Notes: generated by a model from the sequence alone, not told the origin. A DNA stretch of 64,000 nucleotides from Candidatus Woesearchaeota archaeon (GCA_964533515.1 CAZHMB010000001.1:8640-72639); one strand, 5' to 3'; shown: positions 10,900-62,941, counted from the first letter of the stretch. Numbers and translations are program-made.

Positions 10900-10911
10900 C
10901 TTGAATATAAA

Positions 10912-41876: not shown

Positions 41877-41899
41877 GTTTTTACTGATTAACTAAGGAA

Positions 41900-49320: not shown

Positions 49321-49376
49321 AAATGTAATAGATTCAAAACATATATAAAGTTTATTGTAAAAGATAAATTATCAAA

Positions 49377-49889
49377 ATGGGACTAAAATTAAACCTTGGA
49401 GGTGGGCCAAACAAATTAAAGGGGTACGTCAATTGTGATTGGTGCAAAGATATTGGAGTAGATAAAGTCTTTGACATGAATAAAATGCCTTGGGCATTCG
49501 ATGATAACTCAGTTAGTGAGATTGTGATGTGCCATGTTTTGGAACATTTTCATGAGCCAATAAAAATACTAAAAGAAATTTATAGAATTTGTGAGAATGG
49601 AGCGATTATTAAAATAAATGTCCCTTATTTTTCACACGAAAGTGCCTATTCCATGCTGGATCATTACCACCAATTTACTTGGACGAGTTTTGATGCTTTG
49701 GATCCTAAACACCCTTGCCATTGGCAATCTATCGGAAAATTTAAAACAATAAAGAAAAAATTGTTGTGGAGAAAACAGATGAAATTTTGTGAGCTAATTT
49801 TTAATAGAATGCCTCGAATTTATCAAGAAGTTTTCTGCTGGATTTTCCCTGCAAAAGATCTATACATTGAACTTGGAGTGGTGAAATGA
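49377..49889 (+). CDS. class I SAM-dependent methyltransferase (small, paralog set A)
   Basis: 170 aa. Motif I LNLGGGPN..GYVNCD, post-I acidic residue, VLEHF. Confidence 0.6.
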   Translation: MGLKLNLGGGPNKLKGYVNCDWCKDIGVDKVFDMNKMPWAFDDNSVSEIVMCHVLEHFHEPIKILKEIYRICENGAIIKINVPYFSHESAYSMLDHYHQFTWTSFDALDPKHPCHWQSIGKFKTIKKKLLWRKQMKFCELIFNRMPRIYQEVFCWIFPAKDLYIELGVVK

Positions 49890-49943
49890 AGGCTATGAAG
49901 ATTCATCCGCAAAAGGTAAAAGGAATTATTCATAGTGAATTTT

Positions 49944-50087
49944 TTATTTAAAGATAATCCAGTCGGTTCCATATCCCCATACTACCTTTTTACCTATAGA
50001 TTCACCAAATTGATTTACGGCATTGATAACATCTCTAAAAAATTCTACATAATCATGCCCAGAGATAATGCCACCTTTTTTAATGTT
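49944..50087 (-). pseudogene. C-terminal remnant of a class I methyltransferase (…KGGIISGHDYVEFF…), no start codon
   Basis: Minus-strand frame gives NIKKGGIISGHDYVEFFRDVINAVNQFGESIGKKVVWGYGTDWIIFK*, directly preceded by an in-frame stop. The GG-I-I-x-x-D-Y segment is the typical C-terminal beta-strand of TylF/class-I methyltransferases. Confidence 0.4.
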
Positions 50088-51183
50088 TCAAATAGGTCTT
50101 TGTGAAGAATCGTCCAAAGATGTTTACAAAAGACCTCTTGATAATCTTTAGTGTCCTTATTCTTACCAATCTCTCCATTGTCCTCGTTTTTATATCCTTT
50201 ACAGAATACCTTTTCCTGCACAATTCACAAGAATCGCATAGTCCCTTTATTCCTCCGCTCTCTATACTTTTTAATGCCCTCTCATGATTCTCTTTGAACA
50301 AGGAAGCGTAATCATCTTTAAGAAGATTACCCAAAATGCCTTTCAATCCGTAATCCATACAACACACAGTCACATCTCCAGATGGTAGCAATATATTTCG
50401 TTGAAGAAGTGGACTATCTGCACAATAATATTCTCCACTTCTTTTCTCAAACTCGGTGAACTCTTTTACATTTGACCTATTTTCTATTATGCCTTTTACC
50501 ACTTTTACTTTACATCTTTTTAGAATATTTATAATATCCTTGTGTATGGTGTCAAAATAAACTAGACTAAACTTATCCTTATCTACCCTATTTGTGGGCT
50601 GATTCTTTAGAATAAACTCTAATAACTCTAGATAATCATTGTCTACATTAATCCTTGTTTTATCCTCATTGTCTGGGATATGAATAGTAAAAAAGAAGAA
50701 TGGCAAGTCTTTTAGACGAAGATAGTCTTTCTTCGTTAATCCCACTAGTGTTGTATATATAGATACATTGTCATGTCCTTCAGAAAAAGTATGTAATATC
50801 ATTTCTGTGCAATCCGGATTTAAGAATGGTTCCGCCATTCCTGCGAAGTTGATTGTAATATCTTTGGGTATTTTGGATAGACATGTTTTAAAATTATCTA
50901 AAGTAAGAACCATTTCATTTGATCTTTTTAAATAATTATTAATAAGTAATTTTTGTGGACAATAGGAACAATTATTTCTACATCCAATTCTTGTTGTAAT
51001 GTCCATTCCTTTTTTACTATCTGGTTTTGCTTTCGTCTTCTTGGCTGTCTCGCTTTGCAAGCCACCGGTTCCACCCCGACGATTTTCGTGTTTATGAGAA
51101 CTATCCCCACTTATTACACTACCCCTTTTCGCACCAAAGCCCTCTAGCCCTCCAGCTTGCAACACTTCTTCGTTTCCTTCCAT
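50080..51183 (-). CDS. radical SAM protein with C-terminal SPASM/twitch-like Cys cluster
   Basis: CX3CX2C at GCRNNCSYCP. C-terminal CCMDYG...CDSCELC. The first 60 aa, up to MDITTRIG, form a GC-rich Gly/Arg-rich extension. The true start may be Met60, near 51006. Confidence 0.65.
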   Translation of the reverse strand: MEGNEEVLQAGGLEGFGAKRGSVISGDSSHKHENRRGGTGGLQSETAKKTKAKPDSKKGMDITTRIGCRNNCSYCPQKLLINNYLKRSNEMVLTLDNFKTCLSKIPKDITINFAGMAEPFLNPDCTEMILHTFSEGHDNVSIYTTLVGLTKKDYLRLKDLPFFFFTIHIPDNEDKTRINVDNDYLELLEFILKNQPTNRVDKDKFSLVYFDTIHKDIINILKRCKVKVVKGIIENRSNVKEFTEFEKRSGEYYCADSPLLQRNILLPSGDVTVCCMDYGLKGILGNLLKDDYASLFKENHERALKSIESGGIKGLCDSCELCRKRYSVKDIKTRTMERLVRIRTLKIIKRSFVNIFGRFFTKTYLKH

Positions 51184-51306
51184 AAAATAATTGTCTAAAT
51201 AAACTTTATAAATCTAACTTTTTCATCTATTCTCCTGTAGCCCCTTTTTGACATTTCATAATTTTAAAAAGGTAATGGGATGCAACTATTTTTCAGTTTT
51301 AATTAA

Positions 51307-52248
51307 TTACCAGGCAGAGTAGAAAGATTGCCGGATACCAGATTCAAATTTTCCACTGGCCGACCCATGTTCAAAAAAAGGGGGGTGCGCATGCCTGCAA
51401 TCAGTGGTGATATTTTCAGCTAATTGCATAATAAACAACTTGTTAAGAAGCCAGTCAGAACCAAGATATCTCAGAGATGGATTTTTTGTTAAGAAGTGAT
51501 TAAATATCATCAACTGTTTTTTATTCAGAAGATAGCAACAAGTGGTATTAGTGGCCGGTCTTGAGTAATGTCTGAATTCAGCAGACCTTCGAGTCTCTAA
51601 CTCGCCAAGCCCCAAAGAGTCTAAGTCAAAGCCCCCACCTAAATCCATATACAAAGGACTTTTTGTGGTGTTCTTAAGTTGTAACAATAGATTATGCAAT
51701 TTTATAACAGAGTCCTTTTTGAAGATAGCGTCATCTTCAAAAACCAACAGGTAGTCAGTATTTCCATATAAAGAATTATCTATGGCACTCAGATGTTTAT
51801 TCGATAGTATCATTTCTATTGCACAAGATTTTAACCACCCACGTAAACGTCTAGGATGAGAATATTTGATAATTGATTTAATAACAAACTTCGCGAAATG
51901 AAAGGGCAAAAAGGGATTTCTAACCTTTCTATATCTCGCCCATTCTCTGTCTAGTTTCCAGTACATAATGTCTCTAAAGATGCCCATCTTTAAACTCACC
52001 GGCCTTATTTTGGGTTGGTATCCGATTTCATCTATTGTTGTTTCTATATTAGGAGTAAGTTTTTTGGAAAGAGAGGCTATGTTGGGCCTTATTTTATTCA
52101 GCCGGGCCTTATCATTATTATGGATTAGTGCAATCGTCAGTTTTATTTTTCTAAAAGACTCCCGGTCATTATTCAGATGGCCCATACAAATCAGGCAATT
52201 TACCCCTTTATATATTTTAGGGTCAATCACCTTTACTGTACAATCCAC
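51307..52248 (-). CDS. putative GT-A-like glycosyltransferase / hypothetical
   Basis: 313 aa. DxD-like LLVFEDDAIF. Sits inside the glycan cluster. Confidence 0.35.
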   Translation of the reverse strand: MDCTVKVIDPKIYKGVNCLICMGHLNNDRESFRKIKLTIALIHNNDKARLNKIRPNIASLSKKLTPNIETTIDEIGYQPKIRPVSLKMGIFRDIMYWKLDREWARYRKVRNPFLPFHFAKFVIKSIIKYSHPRRLRGWLKSCAIEMILSNKHLSAIDNSLYGNTDYLLVFEDDAIFKKDSVIKLHNLLLQLKNTTKSPLYMDLGGGFDLDSLGLGELETRRSAEFRHYSRPATNTTCCYLLNKKQLMIFNHFLTKNPSLRYLGSDWLLNKLFIMQLAENITTDCRHAHPPFFEHGSASGKFESGIRQSFYSAW

Positions 52249-52313
52249 GGGCAGATGTCCCTTGCCTCTACAGTAAAAAAAAGATTTATAAATATGTTTA
52301 AATTTGAGAGTCT

Positions 52314-53369
52314 ATGAAAATCAGAGAAGTATTTAATTCAGATAAACTTCTTGCAATAGCCCCCTTTGTTGCAAAATATACATCTAAATATGGAACAATA
52401 TTATATGATCTAAAAAGTTTAATACATTCCCATATCCTAAAAACAAAGATTACTAAAGAACCAAATATGAAAGATGTTATTAAAAATGGGCTCCTAATAG
52501 GAACGACAACAATATGTAATGGTAATTGTACCTTTTGCCCATATAGATATTTTGAAGATAAGAAAGAGTCTATGGATTTTAATACATTTAAAAAAATAAT
52601 TGATGATTACTATTCATGTGGAGGGAGAAAAGTAGAATTAACTCCAACCCAGGGAGAGCCATTGCTTGATAGGGGATTTTTCGAAAAAATAAAATACCTA
52701 AACAAAAAAGGTATTTCTTGTACATTTTGCACAAACGGCATCTTGTTAGAAAGAAACATAGAAAAACTTATAAAATTAAAAGTGAAAGATATAGCGATAG
52801 ATATTGGGGACATAATACCCGAAAATGACTCTAAGGTTTTTCAAATACCAATAGAATTGTCTAAAAAGAAAATTAATTCAATTCTAAAGTTACTAGAGAG
52901 AGCAAAAGAAACTGGGTGGGATGCTAGAATTTCCATCTTTTTTAGACCACTAAGAAGCCCATCAAAAGTTTTTAAAGATTTAAAGAAGTCTAAATTTTGG
53001 AAGTATTATAAAGAAGGATTATTATATTTTCAATTTTTGCAAGTATACGATAACTGGGGTGGAAGTATTACAAAAAAAGATTTGATAGGAAATCAGGAGC
53101 TTAAAAGACCAACAGGTATAAGAAAATTTCCCTGTGCTAATTTCTATAAATTGGCTTTTCTTCCCAATGGCGACGCTAGGGTCTGTGGATGTCGTTGTGA
53201 TAAAACACTTAAAGATGATTTGGTTGTTGGAAACATAAATGAAATAAGTCTAAAGGATATTATAAAATCAAAGAGATGGAAAGACATTATCAAAAACAGT
53301 AAAGGGGGGGAACTTCCAAGCGTATGCAAAAAGTGTAGCTTTTTTGAACCAATATTTAAAAATGATTAA
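52314..53369 (+). CDS. radical SAM protein with SPASM/twitch-like C-terminal Cys cluster (paralog of 50080..51183)
   Basis: 351 aa. CX3CX2C at CNGNCTFCPY. C-terminal CGCRCD...CKKCSFF. Confidence 0.65.
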   Translation: MKIREVFNSDKLLAIAPFVAKYTSKYGTILYDLKSLIHSHILKTKITKEPNMKDVIKNGLLIGTTTICNGNCTFCPYRYFEDKKESMDFNTFKKIIDDYYSCGGRKVELTPTQGEPLLDRGFFEKIKYLNKKGISCTFCTNGILLERNIEKLIKLKVKDIAIDIGDIIPENDSKVFQIPIELSKKKINSILKLLERAKETGWDARISIFFRPLRSPSKVFKDLKKSKFWKYYKEGLLYFQFLQVYDNWGGSITKKDLIGNQELKRPTGIRKFPCANFYKLAFLPNGDARVCGCRCDKTLKDDLVVGNINEISLKDIIKSKRWKDIIKNSKGGELPSVCKKCSFFEPIFKND

Positions 53370-53458
53370 ATTGTCAAAACGTTTAGAAAAAAATAGAACT
53401 AATAATAAAAAATGGGGAAAATCAGAGTTTCTCTGATTAGGAATAAAAAGGAAATTAC

Positions 53459-54568
53459 TTGACAATGAAGAAGATAAAAATTTATTTGCAAAAACCTTGG
53501 AGATTTTCTGAAGATTCACAATATTATGAATCTCTTTGTGGGGAACCTCCAAAAGGAATTGAATATGTTTCTCAAAATAAAACTCAGCTACTTCAAAAGG
53601 GTAGTCGGGTGGCGATATTTGATTTAGTAAAAATATTAATAAGAAAATTGGTTGATAAATTTTATCCTTCTATGCCCAATGCACATTATGACAAAGATGC
53701 AGGCAAGTACGATCTTATCCACTGCATTAGGTGTATTCCTAAGACAAAGAAACCATGGGTTTGCGATCTTGAATTTGCGGGAAGCTTGTGGATCAAGGGC
53801 TATGGAACCTTAAAAGATAAAAAAAAGGTTCTTGGATATCTAAAGAGCCCTTATTGCAAAAAAATTCTTCCGTGGACAAAATGGTGTGCGAGGGAGATAC
53901 AAAGAATTTTTCCAGAGATAAGTGATAAGGTGGAAGTTGTTTATCCGGCTATTAGAGAAAGAAAATTTAAGAAGTTGAAAACAGGAAAGACCATTCTGCT
54001 TTATGTTTCAAGAAGATTTTATTTCAAAGGAGGTTTATATGCTTTAGAGACCATGGATAAAATAACTAAAAAAAATAAAAATGTTGAGGGGTGGGTTGTT
54101 TCAGATGTGCCAAAAGAGATCTATGATAAATACCGGGCAAACCCCCAGATAAAATTTATTGGAACAAAATCACATGCAGAACTTTTCGAAGAGATTTATC
54201 CTAAAGCAGATATTTTTTTATATCCTAGTTTCACAGATACTTTTGGCTATGTAATTTTAGAGGCGATGAGTTTTGGATTACCAGTTATAAGTGCCAGCGG
54301 ACAATCGCGAAAAGAGTTAATAGAAGATAATGTCACCGGGAGGATAATTGAGTCGGGGTTGGGTCCAAATCCAGATCCCAGAGATTTGGAAAAGCTAGAT
54401 GAAAAGATAGTAAATAAATTAGTTAATGCCACGTTTAAACTCATTAAAAATAAGGGTTTAAGAGACAAAATGTCTAAGAAGTGCATAGCTGAAACGACCA
54501 TTGGTAAATTTTCTATTGAGAGAAGAAATAAAAAATTAAAAAAGATAATTTCGGAGGCGTTAAGATGA
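53459..54568 (+). CDS. GT4 glycosyltransferase
   Basis: 369 aa. C-terminal GT-B domain with ILEAMSFGLPVISASGQSRKELIEDNVTG (EX7E motif). Confidence 0.7.
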   Translation: MTMKKIKIYLQKPWRFSEDSQYYESLCGEPPKGIEYVSQNKTQLLQKGSRVAIFDLVKILIRKLVDKFYPSMPNAHYDKDAGKYDLIHCIRCIPKTKKPWVCDLEFAGSLWIKGYGTLKDKKKVLGYLKSPYCKKILPWTKWCAREIQRIFPEISDKVEVVYPAIRERKFKKLKTGKTILLYVSRRFYFKGGLYALETMDKITKKNKNVEGWVVSDVPKEIYDKYRANPQIKFIGTKSHAELFEEIYPKADIFLYPSFTDTFGYVILEAMSFGLPVISASGQSRKELIEDNVTGRIIESGLGPNPDPRDLEKLDEKIVNKLVNATFKLIKNKGLRDKMSKKCIAETTIGKFSIERRNKKLKKIISEALR

Positions 54569-55431
54569 AAGATGGAAATGAGAAATTTGACTTGCTTTTT
54601 CTTTGCCATGAAAAAGATGTTGATGCCCTAAGGAGAAACCTAGATTATGCTCGAAAGAATGTTGGGGGGTATCGAAAAATTTTTGTTCTTAGCAAGGAGA
54701 ATTTCTTTAAAGAAGACAAGGACTTGATTTTTATAGATGAGAAAATATTTCCATTCAATAAGGAAGAGATTGCTAAGTACGCCCCAGAAGGTCGGGCGGG
54801 GTGGTATTTTCAACAGTTCCTTAAACTCTATTTTATTGAGGCGATGGGCAAGAAGTGTTTAGACAATGTCTTAATCATAGATGCAGACTGCGCGTTTATA
54901 AGAAAAACAAGTTTTTTCAGGGGTAAGAAACCGCTGTATAATTTTGAAATAGGGTATCATGACCCCTACTATAAAATCTTGGAGAAAGTATTTGGATTTG
55001 GTAAACAAGATTCCAATTTGTCTGGAACAGTGCACCATCTGATGTATCAAAGAAAATACATGTCTGAAATCTTAAATTTTGTGCGTAAAAGAAGTGGAAA
55101 TGAACTTTGGAAGGAGATCATGGACAAAGCAAATAAGAACACGATTTCAGGATTCTCAGAACAGGACCTCTATTTTAACTACATTCTTAAATTTCACAAG
55201 GATAAGATAAAAATAAGAAGGATAAAATTCATTGATTTCCCCTACAATAGTAGATTTTGGGTTTGGCTATTTAAGCATCTGGGCTATAGTTATATTGCAT
55301 CCCACGATTATCTTCAAAAAAAAAGATTTTCTGCAACAAGAAGTCTTTTAATTGAATTTCTAAAAGTACTTGGAATAAAAGTTTTGATAAAAAGAATACT
55401 TATAAAGCTAAGAATCTTGAGGGTTAAATAA
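54565..55431 (+). CDS. hypothetical protein, possible nucleotide-sugar transferase
   Basis: 288 aa. GWYFQQFLKLYFIEA...LIIDADCAFI suggests a GT-A-like DxD pocket. ATGA overlap with the upstream GT4. Confidence 0.3.
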   Translation: MKDGNEKFDLLFLCHEKDVDALRRNLDYARKNVGGYRKIFVLSKENFFKEDKDLIFIDEKIFPFNKEEIAKYAPEGRAGWYFQQFLKLYFIEAMGKKCLDNVLIIDADCAFIRKTSFFRGKKPLYNFEIGYHDPYYKILEKVFGFGKQDSNLSGTVHHLMYQRKYMSEILNFVRKRSGNELWKEIMDKANKNTISGFSEQDLYFNYILKFHKDKIKIRRIKFIDFPYNSRFWVWLFKHLGYSYIASHDYLQKKRFSATRSLLIEFLKVLGIKVLIKRILIKLRILRVK

Positions 55432-55432
55432 G

Positions 55433-55981
55433 ATGAAATTGAATTTGGGTTGTGGAAGGGAAACGATAAGAGGGTATGTTAATTGCGATATCTCCAAGGA
55501 CGTAAATCCCGACAAGGTTGTTGACTTAGAAAAAAAGTTACCTTTCAAAGATAATTCTGTGGAGGAAGTAGTAATTAACCACGTACTTGAACATATAATA
55601 AACTTTATTCCATTAATGCATGAGCTTCGGAGAATATGCGGGCCCGGTGCAAGAATTTATGCAAGGGTTCCATTTTATAGCTCATGGTCCCAGTTTACCG
55701 ATCCTACCCATGTTAGATTTTTTACTCCAAGAACATTTGACTATTTTAAGAAAGGGGAGCTGGGTCATGAGGCAGGTGCAAATGAAGATTTGTTTATAGT
55801 TAAAAAGGTTAAGATTAATTTTTTCTTTGGGAAGATGGCCATACTGAATCCCATAATAAATCCCCTAATCAATCTTAGTCAAAGAGCTTACTGTAGACTT
55901 TTTGCTTGGACTTTTCCAGCATCAGAGATTTGTTACGAATTAGAGGTTGTTAAAAATAAATCCATAAAAGAAAAAGATTAA
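55433..55981 (+). CDS. class I SAM-dependent methyltransferase (paralog set A)
   Basis: 182 aa. MKLNLGCGRETIRGYVNCD...VLEHI. Clear paralog of 49377..49889 and 58367..58864. Confidence 0.6.
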   Translation: MKLNLGCGRETIRGYVNCDISKDVNPDKVVDLEKKLPFKDNSVEEVVINHVLEHIINFIPLMHELRRICGPGARIYARVPFYSSWSQFTDPTHVRFFTPRTFDYFKKGELGHEAGANEDLFIVKKVKINFFFGKMAILNPIINPLINLSQRAYCRLFAWTFPASEICYELEVVKNKSIKEKD

Positions 55982-55982
55982 G

Positions 55983-56705
55983 ATGGGATTATATCAATTG
56001 CAAATTAAGGTGAATCAGTTTTTGAACGGGGTTGGAAGAAAGAGAGTTTATCATCTTAAAAGGAAAGAAGTGGGAATTAATATTGGTAGTGACATAGAAA
56101 CTACCCCAGCATTTGTTGGAATTGATGGAAGCTTTCTAATCTCTTTTATGGGGAACAGATTTTTTCCCAGATTCTTTAAGAAGATTCTGTACAAGAGAAC
56201 ATGTTCTAGTAGAAATTATCCCTTTGAGACAGTTATGAAAAAGATTAGCAATGTTCGGATAATACATCATAATTTGGTATATGGAGTGCCATTTAAAAAA
56301 GAATCTGCGCAATTTATTTTTACATCACATTTCTTAGAACATCTTACTGATGCAAATGCCAAGAAATTGTTAAAGGATTGTTTTAGAGTTCTTAAGAAGA
56401 ATGGAATAATAAGAATAACGATACCCGATTTAGATGAGGAAGTGGGTAAGATCAAAAAAGATATATTAAATTACAAGAGTAATAGAAAAATAGAGCCTAT
56501 TCAGAAATATTTAACCCCGATATTCGCCCCTGAGGGGGAGTTTGCTACTCATAAAATAATCTATAATTTTGAAACTTTAAAAAAGGTTCTTGAATCTGTG
56601 AAGTTTAAAGGCGTAAAGAAAATGAATCGCTTTGAAGGAAATCTCCCTGGATTAAACAAGTTAGATACAAGAGAAGGTGGCCTTATTGTTGAAGCTAGAA
56701 AATGA
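55983..56705 (+). CDS. class I SAM-dependent methyltransferase
   Basis: 240 aa. FIFTSHFLEHLTDANAKKLLKDCFRVLKKNGIIRITIPD (motifs II and III). Confidence 0.55.
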   Translation: MGLYQLQIKVNQFLNGVGRKRVYHLKRKEVGINIGSDIETTPAFVGIDGSFLISFMGNRFFPRFFKKILYKRTCSSRNYPFETVMKKISNVRIIHHNLVYGVPFKKESAQFIFTSHFLEHLTDANAKKLLKDCFRVLKKNGIIRITIPDLDEEVGKIKKDILNYKSNRKIEPIQKYLTPIFAPEGEFATHKIIYNFETLKKVLESVKFKGVKKMNRFEGNLPGLNKLDTREGGLIVEARK

Positions 56706-57446
56706 CTAATTTGGCAAATTCTTTCCTGGAAGTATTGCGCAAATCAGATGATTTCCGTTGCTTCCGGGGATAAAAGACAAAAGCCATCCTAACAAATTAA
56801 AGAATTTTACTAATGAAGGAAATTTACCATTGAACCGATTGCTCATCCAGCAACTAGAAAAATTAACTTTATAATCCGATTCCAAATAATAGCTATTCAG
56901 CAACTTTACAATTTCTTTTTTTCTCCAACGGTAAACAAAGTTATCCCTAAATTTTTGATTGCCAAACTGATTTTTTTCGTATTTACTAGTTAAATTAAAA
57001 AGGTTTAAGATATTTCCGAACCAAGATTCTTGTGGCTCTATGAAAATAATTGCTTTTTTGGCAACTCTAAGCATCTCGTAGAATGCAAGAATTGGGCGGG
57101 AAACATGATGCAATGCTTCTTTCGCGAAGATCAAATCAAATGATTTGGGGGGTAGTGAAACTTTTTCCATATTCAACTTTACGTAAGAGACTCTTCGGTC
57201 TATATTCATTATCTCTTTTGTTTTTTCATCTGGAGGAGATATGCCACTTAAGACTATTTTTTTAAAGGGATATTTTATAAATCCTTCTGCTTCAACATGA
57301 TTTGCACCCAATACCAATACGGTATTGATTTTTCTTTTCATAAGATTGTCTAGCGACGTCTTAATAAAAAACTCATGAAAGTTTTTTGTATTTGTTACAG
57401 AAAGTATTTCTTTGAGTATTGGTCTAGATAAGATAACCTTATTCAT
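56706..57446 (-). CDS. class I SAM-dependent methyltransferase
   Basis: 246 aa. VLVLGANHVEAEG...DLIFAKEALHHVSRP...LRVAKKAIIFIEP. Confidence 0.55.
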   Translation of the reverse strand: MNKVILSRPILKEILSVTNTKNFHEFFIKTSLDNLMKRKINTVLVLGANHVEAEGFIKYPFKKIVLSGISPPDEKTKEIMNIDRRVSYVKLNMEKVSLPPKSFDLIFAKEALHHVSRPILAFYEMLRVAKKAIIFIEPQESWFGNILNLFNLTSKYEKNQFGNQKFRDNFVYRWRKKEIVKLLNSYYLESDYKVNFSSCWMSNRFNGKFPSLVKFFNLLGWLLSFIPGSNGNHLICAILPGKNLPN

Positions 57447-57487
57447 TCGATCATAAAAAAGGTAGAGTTTATAAATTAATCTCTGTT

Positions 57488-58375
57488 TTGTGCATTATGG
57501 CCAATCTAAAAACCCCTATTCTCTACCTAGTATTTAATAGACCCGAACTCGTTAAAAGAACGTTTGTGGAGATACAAAAAGCGAAACCCGTGCGGCTTTT
57601 TATTGCTGCAGATGGTCCAAGAGATGAAGAAGAAAAGAAGAAAACGGACGAAGTCAGACAATACATTCTAAAAAATATAAATTGGAAATGTGAAGTAAAA
57701 ACTCTTTTTAGAAAAAAGAACCTCGGGTGTAAGAATGCGGTTAGTTCGGCTATAACATGGTTTTTCGAGAATGTGGAAGGTGGTATCATACTTGAGGACG
57801 ATTGCCTTCCTGACCGTAGTTTTTTTAGATATTGCCAGGAGTTATTAATAAAATATAAAAATAATAAAAATATTATGCATATTGGTGGGAGTAATTTTTG
57901 TGGATGTGGGTGGAATAATAATTCTTATTACTTCTCTAAATATCCTCATATTTGGGGGTGGGCTACATGGAGGGGGGCATGGGAAGGATACGATAAGAAT
58001 GTTTCTACTCTGACTAATGATAAAATTAAAAGACAATATCCTTCTTTGATAGAACAAAAATTTATGCTAAAGAGATTTGAGAGAATTAAGCTTGGGATTT
58101 CTGACACTTGGGATTACCAATGGATGTGGAATATAAAAATAAATAATGGAATATGTATAACTCCTACTCAAAATATGGTAGGAAACATTGGGTTTTCTGA
58201 TGAGGCATCTTCTCACACCTCAAAAAACTTTTGGGACAACTTTTTTGTTGTTAAAAAAGTTAGGGCTACATCTTTTCCATTAAAACATCCAAAAAAAATA
58301 AAACTATCTTCTTATCAGGATAAAAAAGAACTCTGCGCAGATGCAATAAGGGTAATCCTTAAGAAATTATTTTAA
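57488..58375 (+). CDS. putative glycosyltransferase (GT-A-like, EDD motif) / hypothetical
   Basis: 295 aa. ILYLVFNRPELVKRT...LFIAADGP...IILEDDCLPD. Confidence 0.35.
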   Translation: MCIMANLKTPILYLVFNRPELVKRTFVEIQKAKPVRLFIAADGPRDEEEKKKTDEVRQYILKNINWKCEVKTLFRKKNLGCKNAVSSAITWFFENVEGGIILEDDCLPDRSFFRYCQELLIKYKNNKNIMHIGGSNFCGCGWNNNSYYFSKYPHIWGWATWRGAWEGYDKNVSTLTNDKIKRQYPSLIEQKFMLKRFERIKLGISDTWDYQWMWNIKINNGICITPTQNMVGNIGFSDEASSHTSKNFWDNFFVVKKVRATSFPLKHPKKIKLSSYQDKKELCADAIRVILKKLF

Positions 58376-58864
58376 AACTTTAACTTCTGTATCTAATATA
58401 ACTACCACATTTCCAAATAATTTTTTTAAAACATTCAAAATAGATTTTGGTAAAATTTTTAAATATCTCTGTGGAACTGCTTTCATTTTTAATATCTCAA
58501 ATTGTTCTTTTTGTTTTTTATGGAGGTATCCTGACTGCCCTAATGCTTGCTGGAGAGACCACTCATTAAAAAAATTCACGTGAGTGTGATCTCCGTAGGC
58601 TATGTAACTGTTATAATACGGGACTATAATCCTTATAATTGCGCCCTTTTTACTAATTCTCCAAAGTTCCTTCATTACTTCTTGGGGATTGGAGATATGT
58701 TCCAAGACATTATCCAATAGAATCTCTTCAAAAGTGTTATCTTTGAAAGGATAAGGATATTTTGTAAAATTGAAAGATTTATCGATGCCCCTTCCTTTCT
58801 GAAGATCCACATTTGTCCATCCTTTTTTTATTACTTTTCCACAACCCAAGTTTAATTTTTTCAT
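58367..58864 (-). CDS. class I SAM-dependent methyltransferase (paralog set A)
   Basis: 165 aa. MKKLNLGCGKVIKKGWTNVD...VLEHIS...GAIIRIIVPYY. Confidence 0.6.
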   Translation of the reverse strand: MKKLNLGCGKVIKKGWTNVDLQKGRGIDKSFNFTKYPYPFKDNTFEEILLDNVLEHISNPQEVMKELWRISKKGAIIRIIVPYYNSYIAYGDHTHVNFFNEWSLQQALGQSGYLHKKQKEQFEILKMKAVPQRYLKILPKSILNVLKKLFGNVVVILDTEVKVLK

Positions 58865-59161
58865 AATAATAGTTGTGTGTCAGCTTTTTTAAAAGTTAGG
58901 GTTTGTTCAATCCTTTAGTTATATCTTCTACGCATTTCTTCCAATTATATTTTATTATAGTTTTGGTTAAATTTAGGGTTTATAGCATTCTGTATGGAAT
59001 ATATCTAAAACCTTTAAACAAGTTTTGTATTCTTTTATGATTGGTAAAAAATGTCTTAACCAAAGGAAATCCTCCCATGGTGGAAAGGTTACTTATCTTA
59101 TCCATGCATTCTAGGTATTCTTTATCTTAATAATGTCTTCGTATTGTAGCTTGGGATTGAA

Positions 59162-59959
59162 TTAGTTTCTAATTATAAAAGTTTTAATTTTTCCTTCTTC
59201 TTTTGAAATGTTTGTAACCAATATCTCTTTTATGTTTTTTACATCAAATGGAGACTTATCTAGGTAAACTGCAGAATTTTCTGCTAAACGTATATCTTGC
59301 CCGTGAGACTTATCTTTATTAGGCCATGAGTTTTCTTCGCTGAATGGGTAATGTTCTACAATGAAGATATATTTGTATTTTGATAATTTTTTGAGAATTT
59401 TTTGAATTTGATTATTTGATAGGTGCTGAAAAACTTGCCGTATTATACATATATCCCCATCTGGAAGTTTGTTTTCTATTATATCTAAACACTCAAACTT
59501 TATATTTTTTGCGGAGAATTCAAAACGGTTTTTTTGTATTAACTCTGGTACAACATCTATCCCTACGTAATCTATATTTTCAGAGATTAAGTTTCTGCTT
59601 ACTCTAAAATCCCCACAGCCTAAATCTATAATTTTTAATTTTAATTTCTTTAATTTTAATTTCTTGATATAATCTTTGACGACCTCTATATATTCCTTAC
59701 TTGCTGCCTCATCTGATCCTGATCCTGAATAGAATTCTCCAGCTTTCCCCCCCCATTTATTTTTAGAGTATGTTTCTTGAAATACCTGCTTAACGGATTT
59801 CCGAGAATTTTGTTTTCTAACCCTTTTAATGTTTAAATCTCTACAAATCTCTACAAATCTTTTTGGGATTAGTTTTTTTATTTTTGCTTTACTCATAAAT
59901 TTTATTATTGATTTGTGTATATAAAGTTTATTATCTCTTTTTGTTTTGCGCAGGGTCAC
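59162..59959 (-). CDS. class I SAM-dependent methyltransferase
   Basis: 265 aa. IIDLGCGDFRVSRNL...IDYVGIDVVPELI (motifs I and II). Confidence 0.55.
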   Translation of the reverse strand: MTLRKTKRDNKLYIHKSIIKFMSKAKIKKLIPKRFVEICRDLNIKRVRKQNSRKSVKQVFQETYSKNKWGGKAGEFYSGSGSDEAASKEYIEVVKDYIKKLKLKKLKLKIIDLGCGDFRVSRNLISENIDYVGIDVVPELIQKNRFEFSAKNIKFECLDIIENKLPDGDICIIRQVFQHLSNNQIQKILKKLSKYKYIFIVEHYPFSEENSWPNKDKSHGQDIRLAENSAVYLDKSPFDVKNIKEILVTNISKEEGKIKTFIIRN

Positions 59960-60087
59960 GATAGGGAAGATATATCCAAAACCCTTTAAATGAATTTTGA
60001 ATTTTGTTTTCAGGGTTGGTAAAAAAATGTCTTGATTTTATAAATACTTTAACCTATTATATTCTCTATATTCCCTTTTTCAGAAAG

Positions 60088-61182
60088 TTAGAATTTCACA
60101 ATTTCTTTAGTTATATCCTCCACGCATTTTTTCCAATTATATTTTTTTAATAACATACTTCTCGATGCTTGAATATCTTTCTTTTTCAAATCTAAAACTT
60201 CATTTATTGCATTAAATACGCTCTGATCATCTTCTACATTACACTTTCCTGGTAAAGATTTTCCCAATTCTGCTAAAGAAGTTGCATTATTAAAGACTAC
60301 TGGGGTTTCATAAAAATATGATTCTATTAAGGGTAATCCAAAACCTTCTATTGATGAGAGAAACATTGTGAATTTTGCATTTTTGTAATAGCCTGCAAGC
60401 TCTTCTTCCGACAAACTTCCATCAGGATAATATGGCTCGTAATTTGTTCCGTATTTTTTATTATATTTCTTTATTAAATCTAACGTCCTCCCCATATTCT
60501 TATGGGGAGCCCCGCTCCCAGCTATAAAAATATATTCATTCTTTTTAGGTTTAATTTTTCCTACGGGGACTTGATTACACCCTTCGGGAACAACCAATAT
60601 CTTATTTTTTGTGAATTTTTTAACTACCTTCTTGGTATAGTTTGAATTTACTAAAACTATATCTGAAAACTTTAGAGAAAATAAAAGGAGTGCTGTTGTT
60701 ATGGCTAAATCCAAGCGCCCTTTTTTTAAATAATATAACGGGATAAGGTCGTGCACGAAGGAAACATATTTTGTTTTTTTAACTTTAACTAATGACATAT
60801 GTCCTTTAGGGAAAAATAAAAAATCCAGTTTTTCTTTTTTTGCTATTTTATTTGCCGCTCCTGGATAGAAAAATATCTTTCTTAAAAGGTATGGGGCATT
60901 TGATTTAACTACTACTTTCTTAGACTTAAACTCTTTGAAATATTTTTTATTTTTTTTTGTTAAGATAATTACCACTTCAAACTTATCTTGTTTCTCTAAC
61001 TCTCTAAGGATTTCTAAGGTTGTCTTATAAATTCCTATAGATCCTGTTTTCTGAGGGTTTACATCCGCACAATAATAACCAAGTTTAACTTTCTTCATTA
61101 TAAATTTAAATAAAATCCCGTATAAAAAACTATTTGTTGTGGTTATCTTTTCCCCCAAAAACCAACAATCCCAAATAGGCAA
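60088..61182 (-). CDS. GT4 glycosyltransferase
   Basis: 364 aa. EGFGLPLIESYFYETPVVFNNATSLAELG (EX7E region). Confidence 0.65.
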   Translation of the reverse strand: MPIWDCWFLGEKITTTNSFLYGILFKFIMKKVKLGYYCADVNPQKTGSIGIYKTTLEILRELEKQDKFEVVIILTKKNKKYFKEFKSKKVVVKSNAPYLLRKIFFYPGAANKIAKKEKLDFLFFPKGHMSLVKVKKTKYVSFVHDLIPLYYLKKGRLDLAITTALLLFSLKFSDIVLVNSNYTKKVVKKFTKNKILVVPEGCNQVPVGKIKPKKNEYIFIAGSGAPHKNMGRTLDLIKKYNKKYGTNYEPYYPDGSLSEEELAGYYKNAKFTMFLSSIEGFGLPLIESYFYETPVVFNNATSLAELGKSLPGKCNVEDDQSVFNAINEVLDLKKKDIQASRSMLLKKYNWKKCVEDITKEIVKF

Positions 61183-62476
61183 ATCTTGAAATTATAGTGG
61201 CTATTCCTGCCCCTATAACTGCAGGGTACATCTCCCCCGTTATTGCCAAGGCCCAGGTAATTAATAAATAATTTAAAAGTATATTTAGGGCAGTTGAAAT
61301 AACTACTGCAAATGCTATCTTTTTTGTTTTTCCTTGGGCTCCCCAGTAACCGCTGAAAATTCCTAAAAGAGGGTCTGTAAAAAGTACCAATGAAAGAATT
61401 CTTAATAAAAATACCGAATTTGAATAATCCCTTCCTGTGACAAAATTTACAAAATTAAAAATATACGGGGCAAGCACCCAGATACCTATAATCGCTAATA
61501 TTGAAAGAGGGATGGTTGCGATTAAGGATTTTTTTAATCCTAACTTTAGTCTTGATTTTTTTAATTTAGCAAAGATAGGAAATAAAACTGCTGAAAAAGA
61601 AATAAGCCCCAGGACTGCGACAACTAAGTAAAATGCTGCCTGGTAATGGGCAATAAATTCTGGAGCTACAAACCTTCCCAGCATTATAGTATCAATCTGG
61701 CCGAAGAAAACTCCTGCAAAGGCGGTAACTGAAAGTGGAAAAATGAAACTTCTTATCCCCATTTTCTTCGAAGAAGATATTTTCTTTCCGACATATTTCG
61801 GAATTTTGAACAATAAAAAAGTTGAGATAATAAGATAAGAAAAACCTAAACAAAGGAATAGGGTAAATAAAATTATCCTGCTTGAAGAAGATGCCGTCAA
61901 AAAAAGTGCCAGCCCGATCAAGACTATCCTTGAGATTTGGAAGAGTATCTCTTTATGGAAGGGTGTTTTAAAGTCATTTTTTGATTGGAATAATGAAGAT
62001 AAAAAAGCAGATAAATTAAGAAAAATTATATAGAAAATTCCAGCTAATAAAGCAAGGAAAAGAGGTTTTTGATAATAATAATTAGCTATAAAATATGCTG
62101 AAAAAAATAAAACCAAAGAGACTGTGATAGTTAATAAAAACTTTAACTTTGCTAAATACTCTACATATCCTTTCGAATTTTTTTGATATTTGGAGGCATA
62201 TCTAATCAGAGCGGTTCCAATCCCCAGATCACAGAAACCTGCAAAAACTAAAATCGTGGAAAGTGCTAAAGAGTAAAGCCCAAAAAGTTCTTCAGACAAA
62301 ACCCTCATTAATATCAAGTAGATAAATATTAAACTTCCAAATTTTGCCACCAGATTAGTTGAAAATTGATAAATTGAATTTTTCACAGCCATTCCAGCAT
62401 TCCCGGAAAAGTCTCTTTTTAAGAGTCTTCTTGTTATTCCGAAAGCCTCTTTTTCAAAAATTTTTAGTTTTCCCAT
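61130..62476 (-). CDS. Wzx-type oligosaccharide flippase (MOP/polysaccharide biosynthesis protein family)
   Basis: 448 aa with about 14 TM helices. Length and hydropathy fit PST-family flippases. Overlaps the GT4 by 53 nt. Confidence 0.55.
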   Translation of the reverse strand: MGKLKIFEKEAFGITRRLLKRDFSGNAGMAVKNSIYQFSTNLVAKFGSLIFIYLILMRVLSEELFGLYSLALSTILVFAGFCDLGIGTALIRYASKYQKNSKGYVEYLAKLKFLLTITVSLVLFFSAYFIANYYYQKPLFLALLAGIFYIIFLNLSAFLSSLFQSKNDFKTPFHKEILFQISRIVLIGLALFLTASSSSRIILFTLFLCLGFSYLIISTFLLFKIPKYVGKKISSSKKMGIRSFIFPLSVTAFAGVFFGQIDTIMLGRFVAPEFIAHYQAAFYLVVAVLGLISFSAVLFPIFAKLKKSRLKLGLKKSLIATIPLSILAIIGIWVLAPYIFNFVNFVTGRDYSNSVFLLRILSLVLFTDPLLGIFSGYWGAQGKTKKIAFAVVISTALNILLNYLLITWALAITGEMYPAVIGAGIATIISRFAYLGLLVFGGKDNHNK

Positions 62477-62482: not shown

Positions 62483-62941
62483 TTATCCCTCAATAAACAT
62501 TAACTTCCTCAACTTTAAAAAATCATGTATTATAGAAATTTTATGTATTCTTGCTTTTAATTTTATTGTTGCAATAAAATCTAAGATTAAATGAATGCTA
62601 AACCCCAGAAGAATGTAGAAAAAATATTTTGAAAAGAAAGCGAGAAATCCCAGAACAATCAAAACCTCAATTCCGTGAAGAAAGTAAAACCCCTTGTAAA
62701 ACTTTTTTCTATTTTCCCTTGAGTAACCCATAGCCAACCTCTGATTGGCAAAGCACCTCTTTGTTACCTTGATTGGATTGGTCTCTCCCCTCTTGAAAAC
62801 ATAATAAATATAATGGTCTACATCAATCAAGAAACTTGAAAGGAAAACTATCGTCGCTCCTATTAATCCAATCTGTGGAAAAAATAGAAAAAGAAGGGCA
62901 GAAAAAATTGCTCCCAGAATAAGGTGTGTTTTTGGAAGCAT
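62483..62941 (-). CDS. membrane-bound metal-dependent hydrolase-like protein (DUF457/YdjM-like)
   Basis: 152 aa. 4 TM with conserved His/Asp (IDVDHYIYY, HGIE). Confidence 0.35.
   Translation of the reverse strand: MLPKTHLILGAIFSALLFLFFPQIGLIGATIVFLSSFLIDVDHYIYYVFKRGETNPIKVTKRCFANQRLAMGYSRENRKKFYKGFYFLHGIEVLIVLGFLAFFSKYFFYILLGFSIHLILDFIATIKLKARIHKISIIHDFLKLRKLMFIEG

Follow-up and report, generated by a model that had tools for sequence, protein, structure and literature searches.

In archaea that have been studied, among them the Haloferax and Methanococcus systems, aglB is commonly clustered with other agl genes, and gene clusters that depend on a Wzx flippase make many types of polymer. Among radical-SAM proteins, the SPASM/twitch group is known above all for maturing peptides, and DesII works without an auxiliary cluster. 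The two-electron sugar/cyclitol dehydrogenase BtrN binds its auxiliary cluster through four Cys ligands (PMC9012708, PMC10337720).

The locus analysed here lies in a 64,000-nucleotide stretch of DNA, hereafter the window. The source genome is archaeal and Pacearchaeota-like, it contains intron-bearing tRNAs, and for AglB, the HlpA-like protein and both radical-SAM proteins the closest named relatives come from Candidatus Pacearchaeota; the host is thus predicted to be a small DPANN-type (Pacearchaeota-like) archaeon. The island at 49377-62476 starts directly downstream of aglB and an ArnC/ArnE/ArnT-like trio, in the order STT3, EamA, GT2, PMT_2 (Table 1), and its GC content (0.324 vs 0.354) is the lowest among all 13-kb stretches of the window. 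In an overall explanation that we hold, as a whole, with moderate confidence, it represents the variable, lower-GC part of an AglB-dependent N-glycosylation locus. The GT2 gene likely starts at the ATG at 47088, overlapping the upstream stop codon, and tblastn alignments with its relatives begin at residue 16-18. The aglB gene immediately upstream of the island was overlooked in the original prediction.

Table 1. Features of the island and its flanks, in window coordinates
Feature	Position	Strand	Evidence
Glycos_transf_4 (AglH/MraY-like polyprenyl-phosphate HexNAc-1-P transferase), probable initiating enzyme	32006..33058	+	Pfam PF00953, 90 bits
WecG/TagA-family glycosyltransferase	41148..41876	-	Pfam PF03808, 83.8 bits; same family near AglB in L087
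NAD-dependent sugar epimerase/dehydratase (SDR)	41900..42886	-	Pfam Epimerase, 139.9 bits
AglB/STT3 oligosaccharyltransferase	44000..46744	+	Pfam STT3 71 bits, STT3-PglB_core 30.5 bits; NCBIfam archaeo_STT3 106 bits, under cut-off
114-aa EamA-type 4-TM protein, ArnE/ArnF-like; putative flippase for lipid-phosphate monosaccharide	46744..47088	+	Pfam EamA 40.5 bits; top NCBIfam matches ArnE 36 bits, ArnF 33 bits, both under cut-off
GT2, AglJ/ArnC/DPM1-like polyprenyl-phosphate sugar synthase	47037..47798	+	Pfam Glycos_transf_2 119 bits; NCBIfam AglJ 112 bits, ArnC 67 bits, both under cut-off
PMT_2 (ArnT/AglS-like) transferase, GT-C fold; would use lipid-phosphate sugar at the outer face	47788..49320	-	Pfam PMT_2 54.5, PMT 31.7 bits
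Short class-I SAM methyltransferase, paralog 1, 170 aa	49377..49889	+	Methyltransf_11 29.3 bits
Radical-SAM A, 308 aa from M60	50080..51006 (ORF to 51183)	-	CX3CX2C (CRNNCSYC)
Divergent GT25-like GT-A glycosyltransferase, real length about 275-292 aa	51307..52248	-	PF01755 via homologs
Radical-SAM B, twitch-type, 351 aa	52314..53369	+	CX3CX2C (CNGNCTFC)
GT4 glycosyltransferase	53459..54568	+	Glycos_transf_1 75.7 bits
288-aa protein, uncertain family, possibly GT-A-like	54565..55431	+	IIDADC motif; sub-threshold DUF6492
Short class-I SAM methyltransferase, paralog 2, 182 aa	55433..55981	+	Methyltransf_11 27.3 bits
Class-I SAM methyltransferase, 240 aa	55983..56705	+	Methyltransf_11 30.5 bits
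Class-I SAM methyltransferase, 246 aa	56706..57446	-	Methyltransf_11 34.5 bits
HlpA-like protein, putative nucleotide-diphospho-sugar (GT-A) transferase	57488..58375	+	NCBI names of homologs
Short class-I SAM methyltransferase, paralog 3, 165 aa	58367..58864	-	Methyltransf_11 28.7 bits
Class-I SAM methyltransferase, 265 aa (244 aa per gene caller)	59162..59959	-	Methyltransf_31, _25, _12 at 35-37 bits
GT4 glycosyltransferase	60088..61182	-	Glyco_transf_4 37.8 bits, Glycos_transf_1 31.8 bits
MOP-family Wzx/AglR-like oligosaccharide flippase	61130..62476	-	Polysacc_synt 87.1, Polysacc_synt_3 47.3 bits
YdjM-like small membrane protein, right flank	62483..62941	-	weak YdjM match
SecF, right flank with YdjM-like protein	62943-63995		

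Modifying enzymes make up eight of the 14 adjacent genes in the island, far beyond chance. Homologous loci in related archaea have similarly many, so that the ratio of modifiers to glycosyltransferases, described as unusual in the original prediction, is the norm in this lineage; it also shrinks when the adjacent aglB, GT2, PMT_2, WecG and AglH-like genes are counted. The six class-I methyltransferases, three of them paralogs of about 170 aa, had been recognised correctly. Each of them scores above the gathering threshold of Pfam Methyltransf_11 (27.3-34.5 bits vs 21.2), and the three short proteins share 35-39% mutual identity (BLASTP E 1e-25 to 2e-31; paralog 1 is 38% identical to paralog 2 and 35% to paralog 3), with N-terminal LNLGxG and NCD motifs conserved in their alignment. 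In NCBIfam, none of the six reaches a housekeeping equivalog cut-off. An assignment to ubiquinone or tRNA methyltransferases was rejected, with MenG, UbiG, BioC and MetW scoring 15-25 bits against cut-offs of 100-420; for the 265-aa protein, UbiG, CmoA and BchM reach about 24 bits (cut-offs 103-193). Homologs of the island methyltransferases occur in the glycan loci of relatives: that of the 240-aa enzyme (45% identity) adjoins a radical-SAM B homolog in L090, that of the 246-aa enzyme (58%) lies in L004, and paralog 3, whose top PDB match is the methyltransferase 3mgg (E=2.4e-5), is 50% identical over 102 aa to an L087 methyltransferase directly after a radical-SAM A homolog. The six are therefore genuine class-I enzymes outside the housekeeping families.

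The two GT4s and the Wzx flippase of the original prediction are likewise borne out by Pfam matches (87 bits for the flippase), and the flippase is 42% identical to one that the Pacearchaeota locus L007 carries near its radical-SAM B homolog. Of three proteins proposed to be GT-A-like, one proved GT25-like and a second carries a sugar-transferase name; the third (54565-55431) has a sub-threshold DUF6492 hit as its sole Pfam match (18.1 bits vs 22.9) and found no match in a PDB search. The GT25-like protein has 468 representative homologs, and 35 of 52 homologs match PF01755 (best 2.6e-10); its family profile matches the PDB GT25 structure 8xlz at E=0.0036. Searched by itself, the window protein gives only E=0.083. 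The HlpA-like protein has no match in Pfam, NCBIfam or PDB; it has at least 8000 homologs, and NCBI names those from Pacearchaeota 'nucleotide-diphospho-sugar transferase' or 'hemolytic protein HlpA-like'. L087 (51%) and L091 (48%) also carry homologs.

The two radical-SAM proteins had been described as paralogous SPASM enzymes of about 350 aa. The CX3CX2C motifs and Cys-rich tails are present in both, and radical-SAM B has 351 aa. The radical-SAM A ORF (367 aa) begins with a 59-residue extension found in no homolog; the closest homologs are about 290-320 aa long, and lengths of up to about 500 aa occur among distant homologs. The conserved protein starts at M60 (position 51006), giving 308 aa. 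Recent paralogy did not hold up: BLASTP aligns merely 37 aa (E=0.009), and profile-profile comparison relates the two (probability 98.6%, identity 17%), which indicates kinship at profile level only. Each family keeps only five C-terminal Cys, arranged as C-X(n)-G-X4-C(C)...C-X2-C; with five rather than seven, the two are single-cluster twitch enzymes and not full SPASM proteins. Radical-SAM A falls just below the Pfam thresholds (Radical_SAM 28.8 vs 29.5; SPASM 21.2 vs 21.5), neither family reaches a curated NCBIfam cut-off, and no characterised member was found in either.

The radical-SAM A family profile matches BtrN at E=3.3e-13, with the next PDB match only at E=0.027, and BtrN is also the top Foldseek match (4m7t, E=3.9e-8) of an AF2 model with pLDDT 90.5. 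The family alignment (A3) conserves C195, G210, C215, C216, C257 and C260, of which C195, C215, C257 and C260 align with BtrN C169, C187, C232 and C235, all four auxiliary-cluster Cys; R177 aligns with BtrN R152, which we take to have a catalytic role. Radical-SAM A is therefore best described as a BtrN-like twitch enzyme. Radical-SAM B has a 58-aa all-helical N-terminal extension, an invariant DNWGG motif and, unlike BtrN, a Trp at the position of R152, and because of this Trp the two enzymes may differ in chemistry. In the overall explanation, both are single-auxiliary-cluster twitch enzymes of the BtrN type.

A possible but distinctly less probable alternative is that these enzymes act on the glycan by non-redox or other radical chemistry, such as DesII- or AprD4-like deamination or dehydration, BlsE-like decarboxylation of a uronic acid or, with the neighbouring methyltransferases, C-methylation or the formation of C-C bonds. 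Structural similarity to BtrN, as to DesII and BlsE, stays at superfamily level (TM about 0.5, 11-18% identity), a point against the overall explanation. Against the alternative, both window proteins keep the full four-Cys site, unlike DesII, the alignment of the radical-SAM A family is specific to BtrN, Pfam and NCBIfam searches found no B12-binding or other methyl-carrier domain, and the island genes include neither an aminotransferase nor a UDP-Glc dehydrogenase.

Since aglB is immediately upstream, the product is most likely an N-linked glycan. The core of STT3, EamA, GT2 and PMT_2 is kept in L088 and L090, where the genes past it differ; EamA, in the same position, is 61-64% identical and PMT_2 37-41%, while for GT2 the identity is 63% in L090 but drops to 28% in L088, whose GT2 is fused with a methyltransferase domain. 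AglB itself is 47% identical to that of L004 and L088. On the other side, SecF, the YdjM-like protein and Wzx are kept on the contig that carries P0007, in the order SecF/SecD, 153-aa protein, methyltransferase, Wzx, radical-SAM. A check for variability thus found locus content that differs between relatives inside conserved flanks. The AglH-like gene is split from aglB by inserted housekeeping genes; its homolog adjoins STT3 in L088 and L087. We think it unlikely that the cluster makes a capsule or exopolysaccharide, a glycolipid or a PMT_2-attached O-linked glycan, with its adjacency to aglB reflecting mere clustering of surface-glycan genes. The diversity of Wzx-dependent products noted above would allow this, a PMT_2 GT-C enzyme sits between aglB and the island, and the lineage is one without a known glycan structure (a 2024 review names DPANN once, as a phylogenetic group). 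Against it, the island ORFs yielded neither a Wzy polymerase nor a chain-length regulator, the same families adjoin AglB in four independent related contigs, and agl genes often cluster with aglB elsewhere.

Hundreds of relatives of each radical-SAM family occur across Archaea and Bacteria; scans confirmed at least 269 and at least 460, so that for these two families the earlier view of such enzymes as rare in sugar clusters does not hold. Most of the neighbouring genes encode glycosyltransferases, sugar epimerases or dehydratases, and methyltransferases. Among 147 neighbours of radical-SAM B in 39 genome loci there are 13 methyltransferases, nine GT4, eight GT2, eight epimerases, seven GDP-Man-dehydratase-like proteins and four UDP-Glc dehydrogenases, as well as five matches to Hsp90 (HtpG-like); the 138 neighbours of radical-SAM A in 39 metagenome loci include 17 GT2, six GT4, six GDP-Man dehydratases, six FkbM methyltransferases and five GT10. 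In archaeal relatives AglB adjoins both families. There are exceptions to the glycan association: on a verrucomicrobial-type bacterial contig the radical-SAM B relatives are flanked by RseP and IspG, the five Hsp90 matches are a further case, and rhizobial symbiosis plasmids carry radical-SAM A relatives as solitary genes in the vicinity of nodD2 and nif. No single conserved partner gene emerged, the short methyltransferase accompanying radical-SAM A in only about five of 80 loci. A glycan role of the island and of both families is nonetheless well supported, and the original prediction of a glycan-modification cluster rather than a chance grouping agrees with this context, which recurs in dozens of unrelated genomes.

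That the radical-SAM proteins mature peptides or proteins, as RiPP-type enzymes, anSME-like formylglycine generators or modifiers of the glycoprotein polypeptide, is quite improbable, even though SPASM/twitch enzymes are best known in that role. CteB, SuiB, SkfB, anSME and ChlB are among the structural matches of radical-SAM B, with peptide-modifying SPASM enzymes scoring almost as well as BtrN, DesII and BlsE; two sulfatase-family genes lie near its homolog in L005, and JGI labels some radical-SAM A homologs 'AslB'. However, anSME (TIGR03942) reaches 42.8 bits against a cut-off of 349, the C-terminal Cys number five, not seven or eight, the island has no sulfatase gene and its intergenic gaps no plausible precursor ORF, the purely helical extension of radical-SAM B lacks the beta-strands expected of an RRE domain, and across about 80 loci the neighbouring genes encode glycan enzymes rather than peptidases or ABC exporters. 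Housekeeping enzymes (QueE, PflA, MoaA or NirJ-like) present by chance are hardly credible: NCBIfam gives weak matches to MoaA (45 bits), the W-cofactor maturase (82 bits) and QueE (16-30 bits), and MoaA is the top sequence-profile PDB match of radical-SAM B, but that match is limited to the radical-SAM core (positions 50-242), every score is 3- to 15-fold under curated cut-offs, with QueE, PflA, MoaA and anSME equivalogs all far below, and the glycan-locus context recurs in unrelated phyla.

In the N-glycan pathway that we favour, the AglH-like transferase would start an oligosaccharide on polyprenyl or dolichyl phosphate, and the GT4, GT25-like, HlpA-like and WecG transferases would extend it on the cytoplasmic face. 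The six methyltransferases would then decorate it, probably by O-methylation rather than C-methylation, each at its own position or sugar, before the Wzx/AglR-like protein flips it and AglB attaches it to Asn residues in surface proteins; the ArnC-like GT2, ArnE/F-like 4-TM protein and ArnT-like PMT_2 may add an outer-face sugar from a lipid-phosphate donor. We infer that the radical-SAM enzymes act on a nucleotide sugar or lipid-linked glycan, where the 5'-deoxyadenosyl radical would abstract H from a hydroxyl-bearing sugar C-H and the auxiliary [4Fe-4S] cluster would take an electron to yield a keto-sugar, as in BtrN-like dehydrogenation; alternatively, the extra conserved Cys beside a cluster ligand may return H to the opposite face and give an epimer. 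Taken together, and on balance probably, this archaeon would carry a heavily O-methylated N-glycan, and NAD-independent radical enzymes would also oxidise or epimerise its sugars.

The island of methyltransferase and radical-SAM genes at 49377-62476, which the original prediction read as a glycan-modification cluster, starts just past a key gene, aglB, which encodes the STT3/AglB oligosaccharyltransferase. The locus contains the genes of an AglB-dependent pathway (STT3, Wzx, Glycos_transf_4 and at least seven further glycosyltransferases), and the AglB-linked arrangement is conserved in four related archaeal contigs (L004, L087, L088 and L090). This linkage, together with the glycan enzymes that neighbour both radical-SAM families (here A and B), supports the glycan reading, and an AglB-dependent N-glycan pathway is the best-supported model for the island. 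The closest named relatives of AglB, of A and B and of an HlpA-like protein are Candidatus Pacearchaeota, and the window carries intron-bearing tRNAs; together, these indicate that the genome is that of a DPANN archaeon of the Pacearchaeota kind. Rfam picks up two long tRNAs, of 112 and 135 nt, that ARAGORN misses; these are presumably archaeal tRNAs with introns.

Features of the aglB locus and the adjoining island, in window positions
Feature	Position	Strand	Remarks
AglH/MraY-like polyprenyl-phosphate transferase	32006-33058		Glycos_transf_4; further upstream of aglB
Long tRNA, 112 nt	36580-36691	-
Long tRNA, 135 nt	37603-37737	-
WecG-family transferase and SDR epimerase	41148-42886		further upstream of aglB
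STT3/AglB oligosaccharyltransferase	44000-46744
Trio after aglB	46744-49320		the three genes below
EamA-type membrane protein, 114 aa			after aglB; best NCBIfam matches ArnE, ArnF
GT2			after the EamA gene; best NCBIfam matches AglJ, ArnC, Dol-P-hexose transferases
PMT_2 GT-C enzyme			third gene after aglB
Radical-SAM A, whole ORF	50080-51183	-
Radical-SAM A, C-terminal helix	50080-50199	-	residues 269-307
Radical-SAM A, 59-codon extension	51007-51183	-
GT25-like protein	51307-52248	-	family of 468 representative sequences
Radical-SAM B	52314-53369	+
288-aa protein	54565-55431	+	only DUF6492, sub-threshold
HlpA-like protein	57488-58375	+	at least 8000 homologs
Wzx-type flippase	61130-62476		MOP family

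The conserved trio that follows aglB consists of an ArnE/F-like EamA protein, an ArnC/AglJ-like GT2 and an ArnT-like PMT_2 enzyme. In bacteria, ArnC, ArnE-ArnF and ArnT synthesize, flip and transfer undecaprenyl-phosphate-Ara4N. The same types of protein are found here, namely a GT2 polyprenyl-phosphate sugar synthase, an EamA-type protein of about 110 aa and a PMT_2 GT-C transferase, and ArnE, ArnF and ArnC are among the best NCBIfam matches, although the scores are below cut-off. In contrast to the bacterial system, there is one small membrane protein instead of a heterodimer pair, and a glycan or glycoprotein, rather than lipid A, presumably serves as acceptor. The likely GT2 start is the ATG at 47088, which overlaps the EamA stop codon; the 52-nt overlap of the EamA and GT2 ORFs recurs in L090.

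The locus also resembles the agl clusters of Haloferax volcanii, which include the methyltransferase AglP, the AglD/AglR/AglS lipid-phosphate-mannose branch and AglJ. As in those clusters, aglB adjoins glycosyltransferases, a MOP-family flippase and SAM methyltransferases, AglJ is the best match of the GT2 (112 bits), the final sugar could be attached outside the membrane by a GT-C enzyme, and gene content varies among relatives. However, there are six methyltransferases here and one there, and the two radical-SAM enzymes and the ArnE/F-like 4-TM protein are further differences; all Agl equivalog cut-offs are missed by the window proteins, so that none is orthologous to a named Agl protein. 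A variable agl-type island beside aglB is an ordinary and already known type of locus; the novelty lies in the two uncharacterised BtrN-like radical-SAM families that it contains.

The 14 genes of the island, defined by ORF listing and profile searches, are tightly packed with eight strand changes. Its GC content of 0.324 is the lowest of any 13.1-kb stretch in the window (vs 0.354, and vs a mean of 0.351), and the lowest-GC genes are a methyltransferase at 59162-59959 (0.288) followed by radical-SAM B (0.299). The six class-I SAM-dependent methyltransferases originally predicted are all present: each scores 27.3-34.5 bits on Pfam Methyltransf_11 (gathering score 21.2), and the PDB matches are methyltransferases. 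Their NCBIfam scores for UbiE/MenG, UbiG, CmoA, BioC and MetW are 15-25 bits against cut-offs of 103-420, so that no housekeeping equivalog is reached, which argues against tRNA or ubiquinone methyltransferases. The three short proteins (170, 182 and 165 aa) are true paralogs, as had been proposed, with 35-39% identity and BLASTP E-values of 1e-25 to 2e-31. They are unusually compact; the alignment places the motifs LNLG(C/G)G and (N/V)(C/V)D at the N-terminal end, with the SAM loop K-L-N-L-G-C-G at the extreme N-terminus and the acidic residue of motif II at most 10 residues past this glycine-rich loop.

The two GT4 glycosyltransferases and the Wzx flippase were likewise recovered with Pfam, while the expectation of three GT-A-like proteins held only in part. 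None of these three proteins has a significant Pfam match of its own, direct PDB sequence searches gave nothing useful, and the homolog set gave a putative assignment for the GT25-like protein only. Its own match to PF01755 is weak (E=0.083, Pfam at E<=10), yet 35 of 52 sampled homologs match this GT25 family (best E 2.6e-10), the family profile reaches PDB GT25 structures at E=0.0036, and a conserved "FEDD" motif contains invariant E137 and D139, with D138 conserved in at least 90%. The HlpA-like protein is placed among glycosyltransferases by name only, its Pacearchaeota homologs being called "nucleotide-diphospho-sugar transferase" or "HlpA-like" at NCBI, and the 288-aa protein has nothing beyond its DUF6492 match.

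Radical-SAM A and B are members of the radical SAM superfamily. The CX3CX2C motif, present as CRNNCSYC and CNGNCTFC in the two proteins, is invariant in alignments of each family, and the AF2 models (AlphaFold pLDDT 95.3 for B and 90.5 for A) match radical-SAM structures. On Pfam PF04055, B scores 65.4 bits and A 28.8 bits against a gathering score of 29.5. The two had been described as paralogs of about 350 aa. BLASTP aligns just 37 residues around the cluster motif (E=0.009), and comparison of the family profiles gives 98.6% probability at 17% identity; A and B are thus not close paralogs. The predicted length is right for B (351 aa) and too long for A. The ORF of A opens with 59 Gly/Lys/Glu-rich residues that occur in none of 195 homologs, its closest homologs have about 290-320 aa (some distant ones about 500 aa), and the conserved region starts at "EITT.IGC"; the start was therefore taken as M60 (51006), giving 308 aa. 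The 59 codons have a GC content of 0.457 (vs 0.32 for the locus) and could encode a disordered tail or a leader, or be a remnant of inserted DNA. A structured RNA in this stretch was considered and rejected, with no Rfam match at E<=1 and fold z-scores of -0.16 and -0.61.

Alignments of 42 and 44 members of the two families contain only five conserved C-terminal cysteines each, C195, C215, C216, C257 and C260 in A and C274, C291, C293, C338 and C341 in B. They share the arrangement C-X(n)-G-X4-C(C)...C-X2-C, spaced as C195-X14-G-X4-C215 and C257-X2-C260 in A and as C274-X11-G-X4-C291 and C338-X2-C341 in B. [quoted passage not shown] In A and B, the CX2CX5CX3C block of the seven- or eight-Cys SPASM domain is shrunk to CX2C, and although Pfam SPASM still matches (35.1 bits for B and 21.2 for A), the cysteine pattern assigns both proteins to the single-cluster twitch type and not to the seven-Cys SPASM type. 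Of the SPASM/twitch-like tails first proposed, the twitch alternative is thus the one retained.

Neither protein reaches any curated NCBIfam cut-off. The scores for MoaA (45 bits vs 284), QueE (16-30 vs 260), NrdG (25 vs 131) and NirJ1 (37 vs 650) place them outside the MoaA, QueE, NrdG/PflA-type activase and NirJ/AhbD equivalogs, which counts against the concern that QueE- or PflA-like housekeeping enzymes sit here by chance. They are not anSMEs either, with 42.8 bits on TIGR03942 against a cut-off of 349 and no sulfatase gene in the island.

The relationship that stands out is to BtrN, the founding twitch radical-SAM enzyme and the 2-deoxy-scyllo-inosamine dehydrogenase of the butirosin pathway (PDB 4M7T/4M7S). 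The A family profile matches BtrN at E=3.3e-13 in a search of the PDB, in which the runner-up has E=0.027, and the alignment spans both the radical-SAM core and the twitch domain; Foldseek also returns BtrN as the top match of the A model (E=3.9e-8). C169, C187, C232 and C235 of BtrN fall on four conserved cysteines of the A family, and the BtrN loop N151-R152-G-G is aligned to R177-A-G-N of A, in which R177 is conserved in at least 90%. In the BtrN structure of Goldman et al. from 2013, R152 is reportedly the proposed catalytic base. Radical-SAM B also matches BtrN (E=7.5e-12), but has Trp at the R152 position, so that full-length similarity to BtrN applies to A and only partly to B. The auxiliary cluster of BtrN has four Cys ligands, and the enzyme oxidises a cyclitol hydroxyl by two electrons (PMC9012708, PMC10337720).

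There are also clear differences. Identity between BtrN and the window families is just 14-18%, and both families, unlike BtrN, have an extra conserved Cys beside the second ligand (C216 in A and C293 in B). B further differs in an invariant DNWGG motif and in a 58-aa N-terminal extension modelled by AF2 as four helices without beta-strands, whereas A differs in its long C-terminal helix. This single, basic and amphipathic helix of 39 residues in the AF2 model is variable or absent among homologs and could be a membrane anchor. The context differs as well, being a surface-glycan/N-glycosylation locus and not an aminoglycoside antibiotic cluster; unlike a 2-deoxystreptamine cluster, it has no 2-DOI synthase or aminotransferase gene, the neighbours being AglB, glycosyltransferases, methyltransferases and a flippase. 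The other radical-SAM enzymes of sugar chemistry, DesII, BlsE, SpeY, AbmM and AprD4, come without exception from antibiotic or nucleoside natural-product pathways and show 11-15% identity to the window proteins, and the NCBIfam score for BlsE is 28 bits against a cut-off of 400.

Radical-SAM enzymes had been assumed to be rare in sugar clusters. B has at least 269 confirmed relatives in species-representative genomes, from Pacearchaeota, Micrarchaeota, Verrucomicrobiota, cyanobacteria, Planctomycetota and others, and A has at least 460 in metagenome contigs; contrary to that assumption, the neighbours of both families, in archaea as well as bacteria, are largely glycan enzymes. Pfam families were tallied for two genes on each side at about 40 loci per family. 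The 147 neighbours of B include 13 class-I methyltransferases, 9 GT4, 8 GT2, 8 SDR epimerases, 7 GDP-mannose-dehydratase-like proteins, 4 UDP-glucose dehydrogenases and 4 FkbM methyltransferases, and the 138 neighbours of A include 17 GT2, 6 GT4, 6 GDP-mannose dehydratases, 6 FkbM and 5 class-I methyltransferases, 5 GT10 fucosyltransferases and 4 RmlD-like proteins. One B clade in marine contigs is flanked by a CMP-sugar synthetase (CTP_transf_3) and NeuB. In two such contigs from Tara and JGI (L002 and L003), the relative at 10001-10981 of each has 32% identity to B; the same contigs have ORFs of 2300-2577 aa and many others that match no Pfam family, and a virus or unusual bacterium may here possess a pathway for nonulosonic acids.

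There are exceptions to this pattern. A B relative in a verrucomicrobial-type bacterial contig (L006, 10001-11152) lies between RseP, an M50 protease, and IspG, and 5 of the 147 B neighbours match Hsp90 (HtpG-like), which suggests another role of B in those clades. In rhizobia, the symbiosis plasmids of Sinorhizobium, Mesorhizobium and Bradyrhizobium carry relatives of A (about 35% identity) that stand alone, with nodD2, nif genes and the gene of a calcium-binding protein in the vicinity, as at 8938-9792 of Sinorhizobium fredii pSfreNXT3b (L092). No single partner gene is conserved with either family, and for B no window protein recurs in 80 genome loci besides generic GT2 and GT4. A fixed module of A with a short methyltransferase was rejected: they lie side by side in L087 and as convergent neighbours here, yet tblastn found them together at only about 5 of 80 A loci. 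The glycan association of both families is strong, but not absolute.

Comparison with related contigs indicates how the island is organized. An identical copy of window positions 47608-61337 is present in an independent assembly from run SRR5581654. The order of the AglB, EamA, GT2 and PMT_2 core is kept in L090 and L088, with identities of 61-64% for EamA and 37-41% for PMT_2; GT2 is 63% identical to its counterpart in L090 and only 28% to that in L088, where it is fused with a methyltransferase domain. Beyond this core, L090 encodes an epimerase, a GT92-like protein, Methyltransf_24, a radical-SAM B homolog (63%), a homolog of the 240-aa methyltransferase, GT4, asparagine synthase and heptose genes, without radical-SAM A, whereas L088 has an A homolog directly after PMT_2. 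A further contig, the one with P0007, has the same right flank as the window (SecF/SecD, a 153-aa membrane protein, then Wzx); three radical-SAM/SPASM genes, four methyltransferases, an aminotransferase and different glycosyltransferases are enclosed by its flanks. In L004 and L087, the same families adjoin AglB, along with B12-radical-SAM and FkbM methyltransferases. Since the core and flanks are kept and the genes between them differ, the locus is a variable cassette region between conserved flanks. The richness in methyltransferases and radical-SAM enzymes, first thought unusual, is shared by these loci and is hence a lineage trait and not an oddity of this genome. In L004 (9378-11044) and L090 (7901-9567), the two closest relatives among the long contigs, the B homolog is directly preceded, on its own strand, by a gene for a Methyltransf_24 protein of about 195 aa that the window lacks; the glycan locus of L004 also has two B12-binding radical-SAM genes.

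In the AglB-dependent model, an oligosaccharide would grow on a polyprenyl phosphate carrier, receive several methyl groups from the six different SAM methyltransferases, cross the membrane by way of the Wzx-like protein and then be transferred by AglB, while an Arn-like or AglD/AglS-like side branch would put a sugar on outside the membrane. The twitch architecture and the kinship with BtrN are firm, and by analogy with that enzyme A and B most plausibly take hydrogen from a sugar carbinol carbon. An electron could then pass to the auxiliary cluster, giving a keto-sugar as in BtrN, or hydrogen could be returned by the extra conserved Cys, giving an epimer. Other sugar chemistry, like that of DesII, BlsE or AprD4, or methyl transfer with a partner, may apply instead, especially to B with its Trp where BtrN has arginine. 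Peptide maturation by A and B is unlikely, as the intergenic gaps hold no plausible precursor ORF, the neighbours are glycan enzymes, and there is no RRE-like (PqqD-like) domain, the AF2 N-terminus of B being all helix and A having no N-terminal domain. The original observation was largely right, and carbinol hydrogen abstraction is a good hypothesis for the chemistry.

Literature searches combining radical SAM with polysaccharide, AglB/N-glycosylation, O-antigen, capsule and flagellin glycosylation returned no description of such enzymes, and we found no characterised member of either family. The reviews searched describe no radical-SAM step in N-glycosylation, and a 2024 review of the archaeal pathways does not mention radical enzymes. 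The sole precedent found is a 36-kb plasmid of Brachyspira hyodysenteriae, which carries several uncharacterised radical-SAM genes scattered among GT4, rfb and epimerase genes, with differences between strains (PMC4267127). The best NCBIfam match of A is TIGR04321 "spiro-SPASM" (49 bits, far under the cut-off of 250), but tblastn of the plasmid collection gave only rhizobial symbiosis plasmids for A and weak, core-only matches for B.

A broader proposition, which we put forward tentatively and consider rather doubtful at present, is that BtrN-type twitch enzymes are widespread, unrecognised NAD-independent sugar oxidoreductases or epimerases of prokaryotic surface-glycan assembly, which in DPANN archaea would act within N-glycosylation, possibly on the lipid-linked oligosaccharide, making keto, epimerised or unusual sugars that are then capped by the six methyltransferases. 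If true, it would mark the first case of radical chemistry in N-glycosylation of any kind. Once the two families were assigned a reaction, hundreds of surface-glycan clusters could be annotated, and the sugar chemistry of twitch radical-SAM enzymes would reach beyond antibiotic pathways into the primary biosynthesis of the cell surface. To our knowledge, archaeal N-glycans are the most chemically diverse known, and their pathways have been solved in few cultured species, none of them DPANN. Episymbiotic DPANN cells meet their host through the surface glycan, so that host or virus specificity could plausibly be determined by a variable, heavily methylated glycan island.
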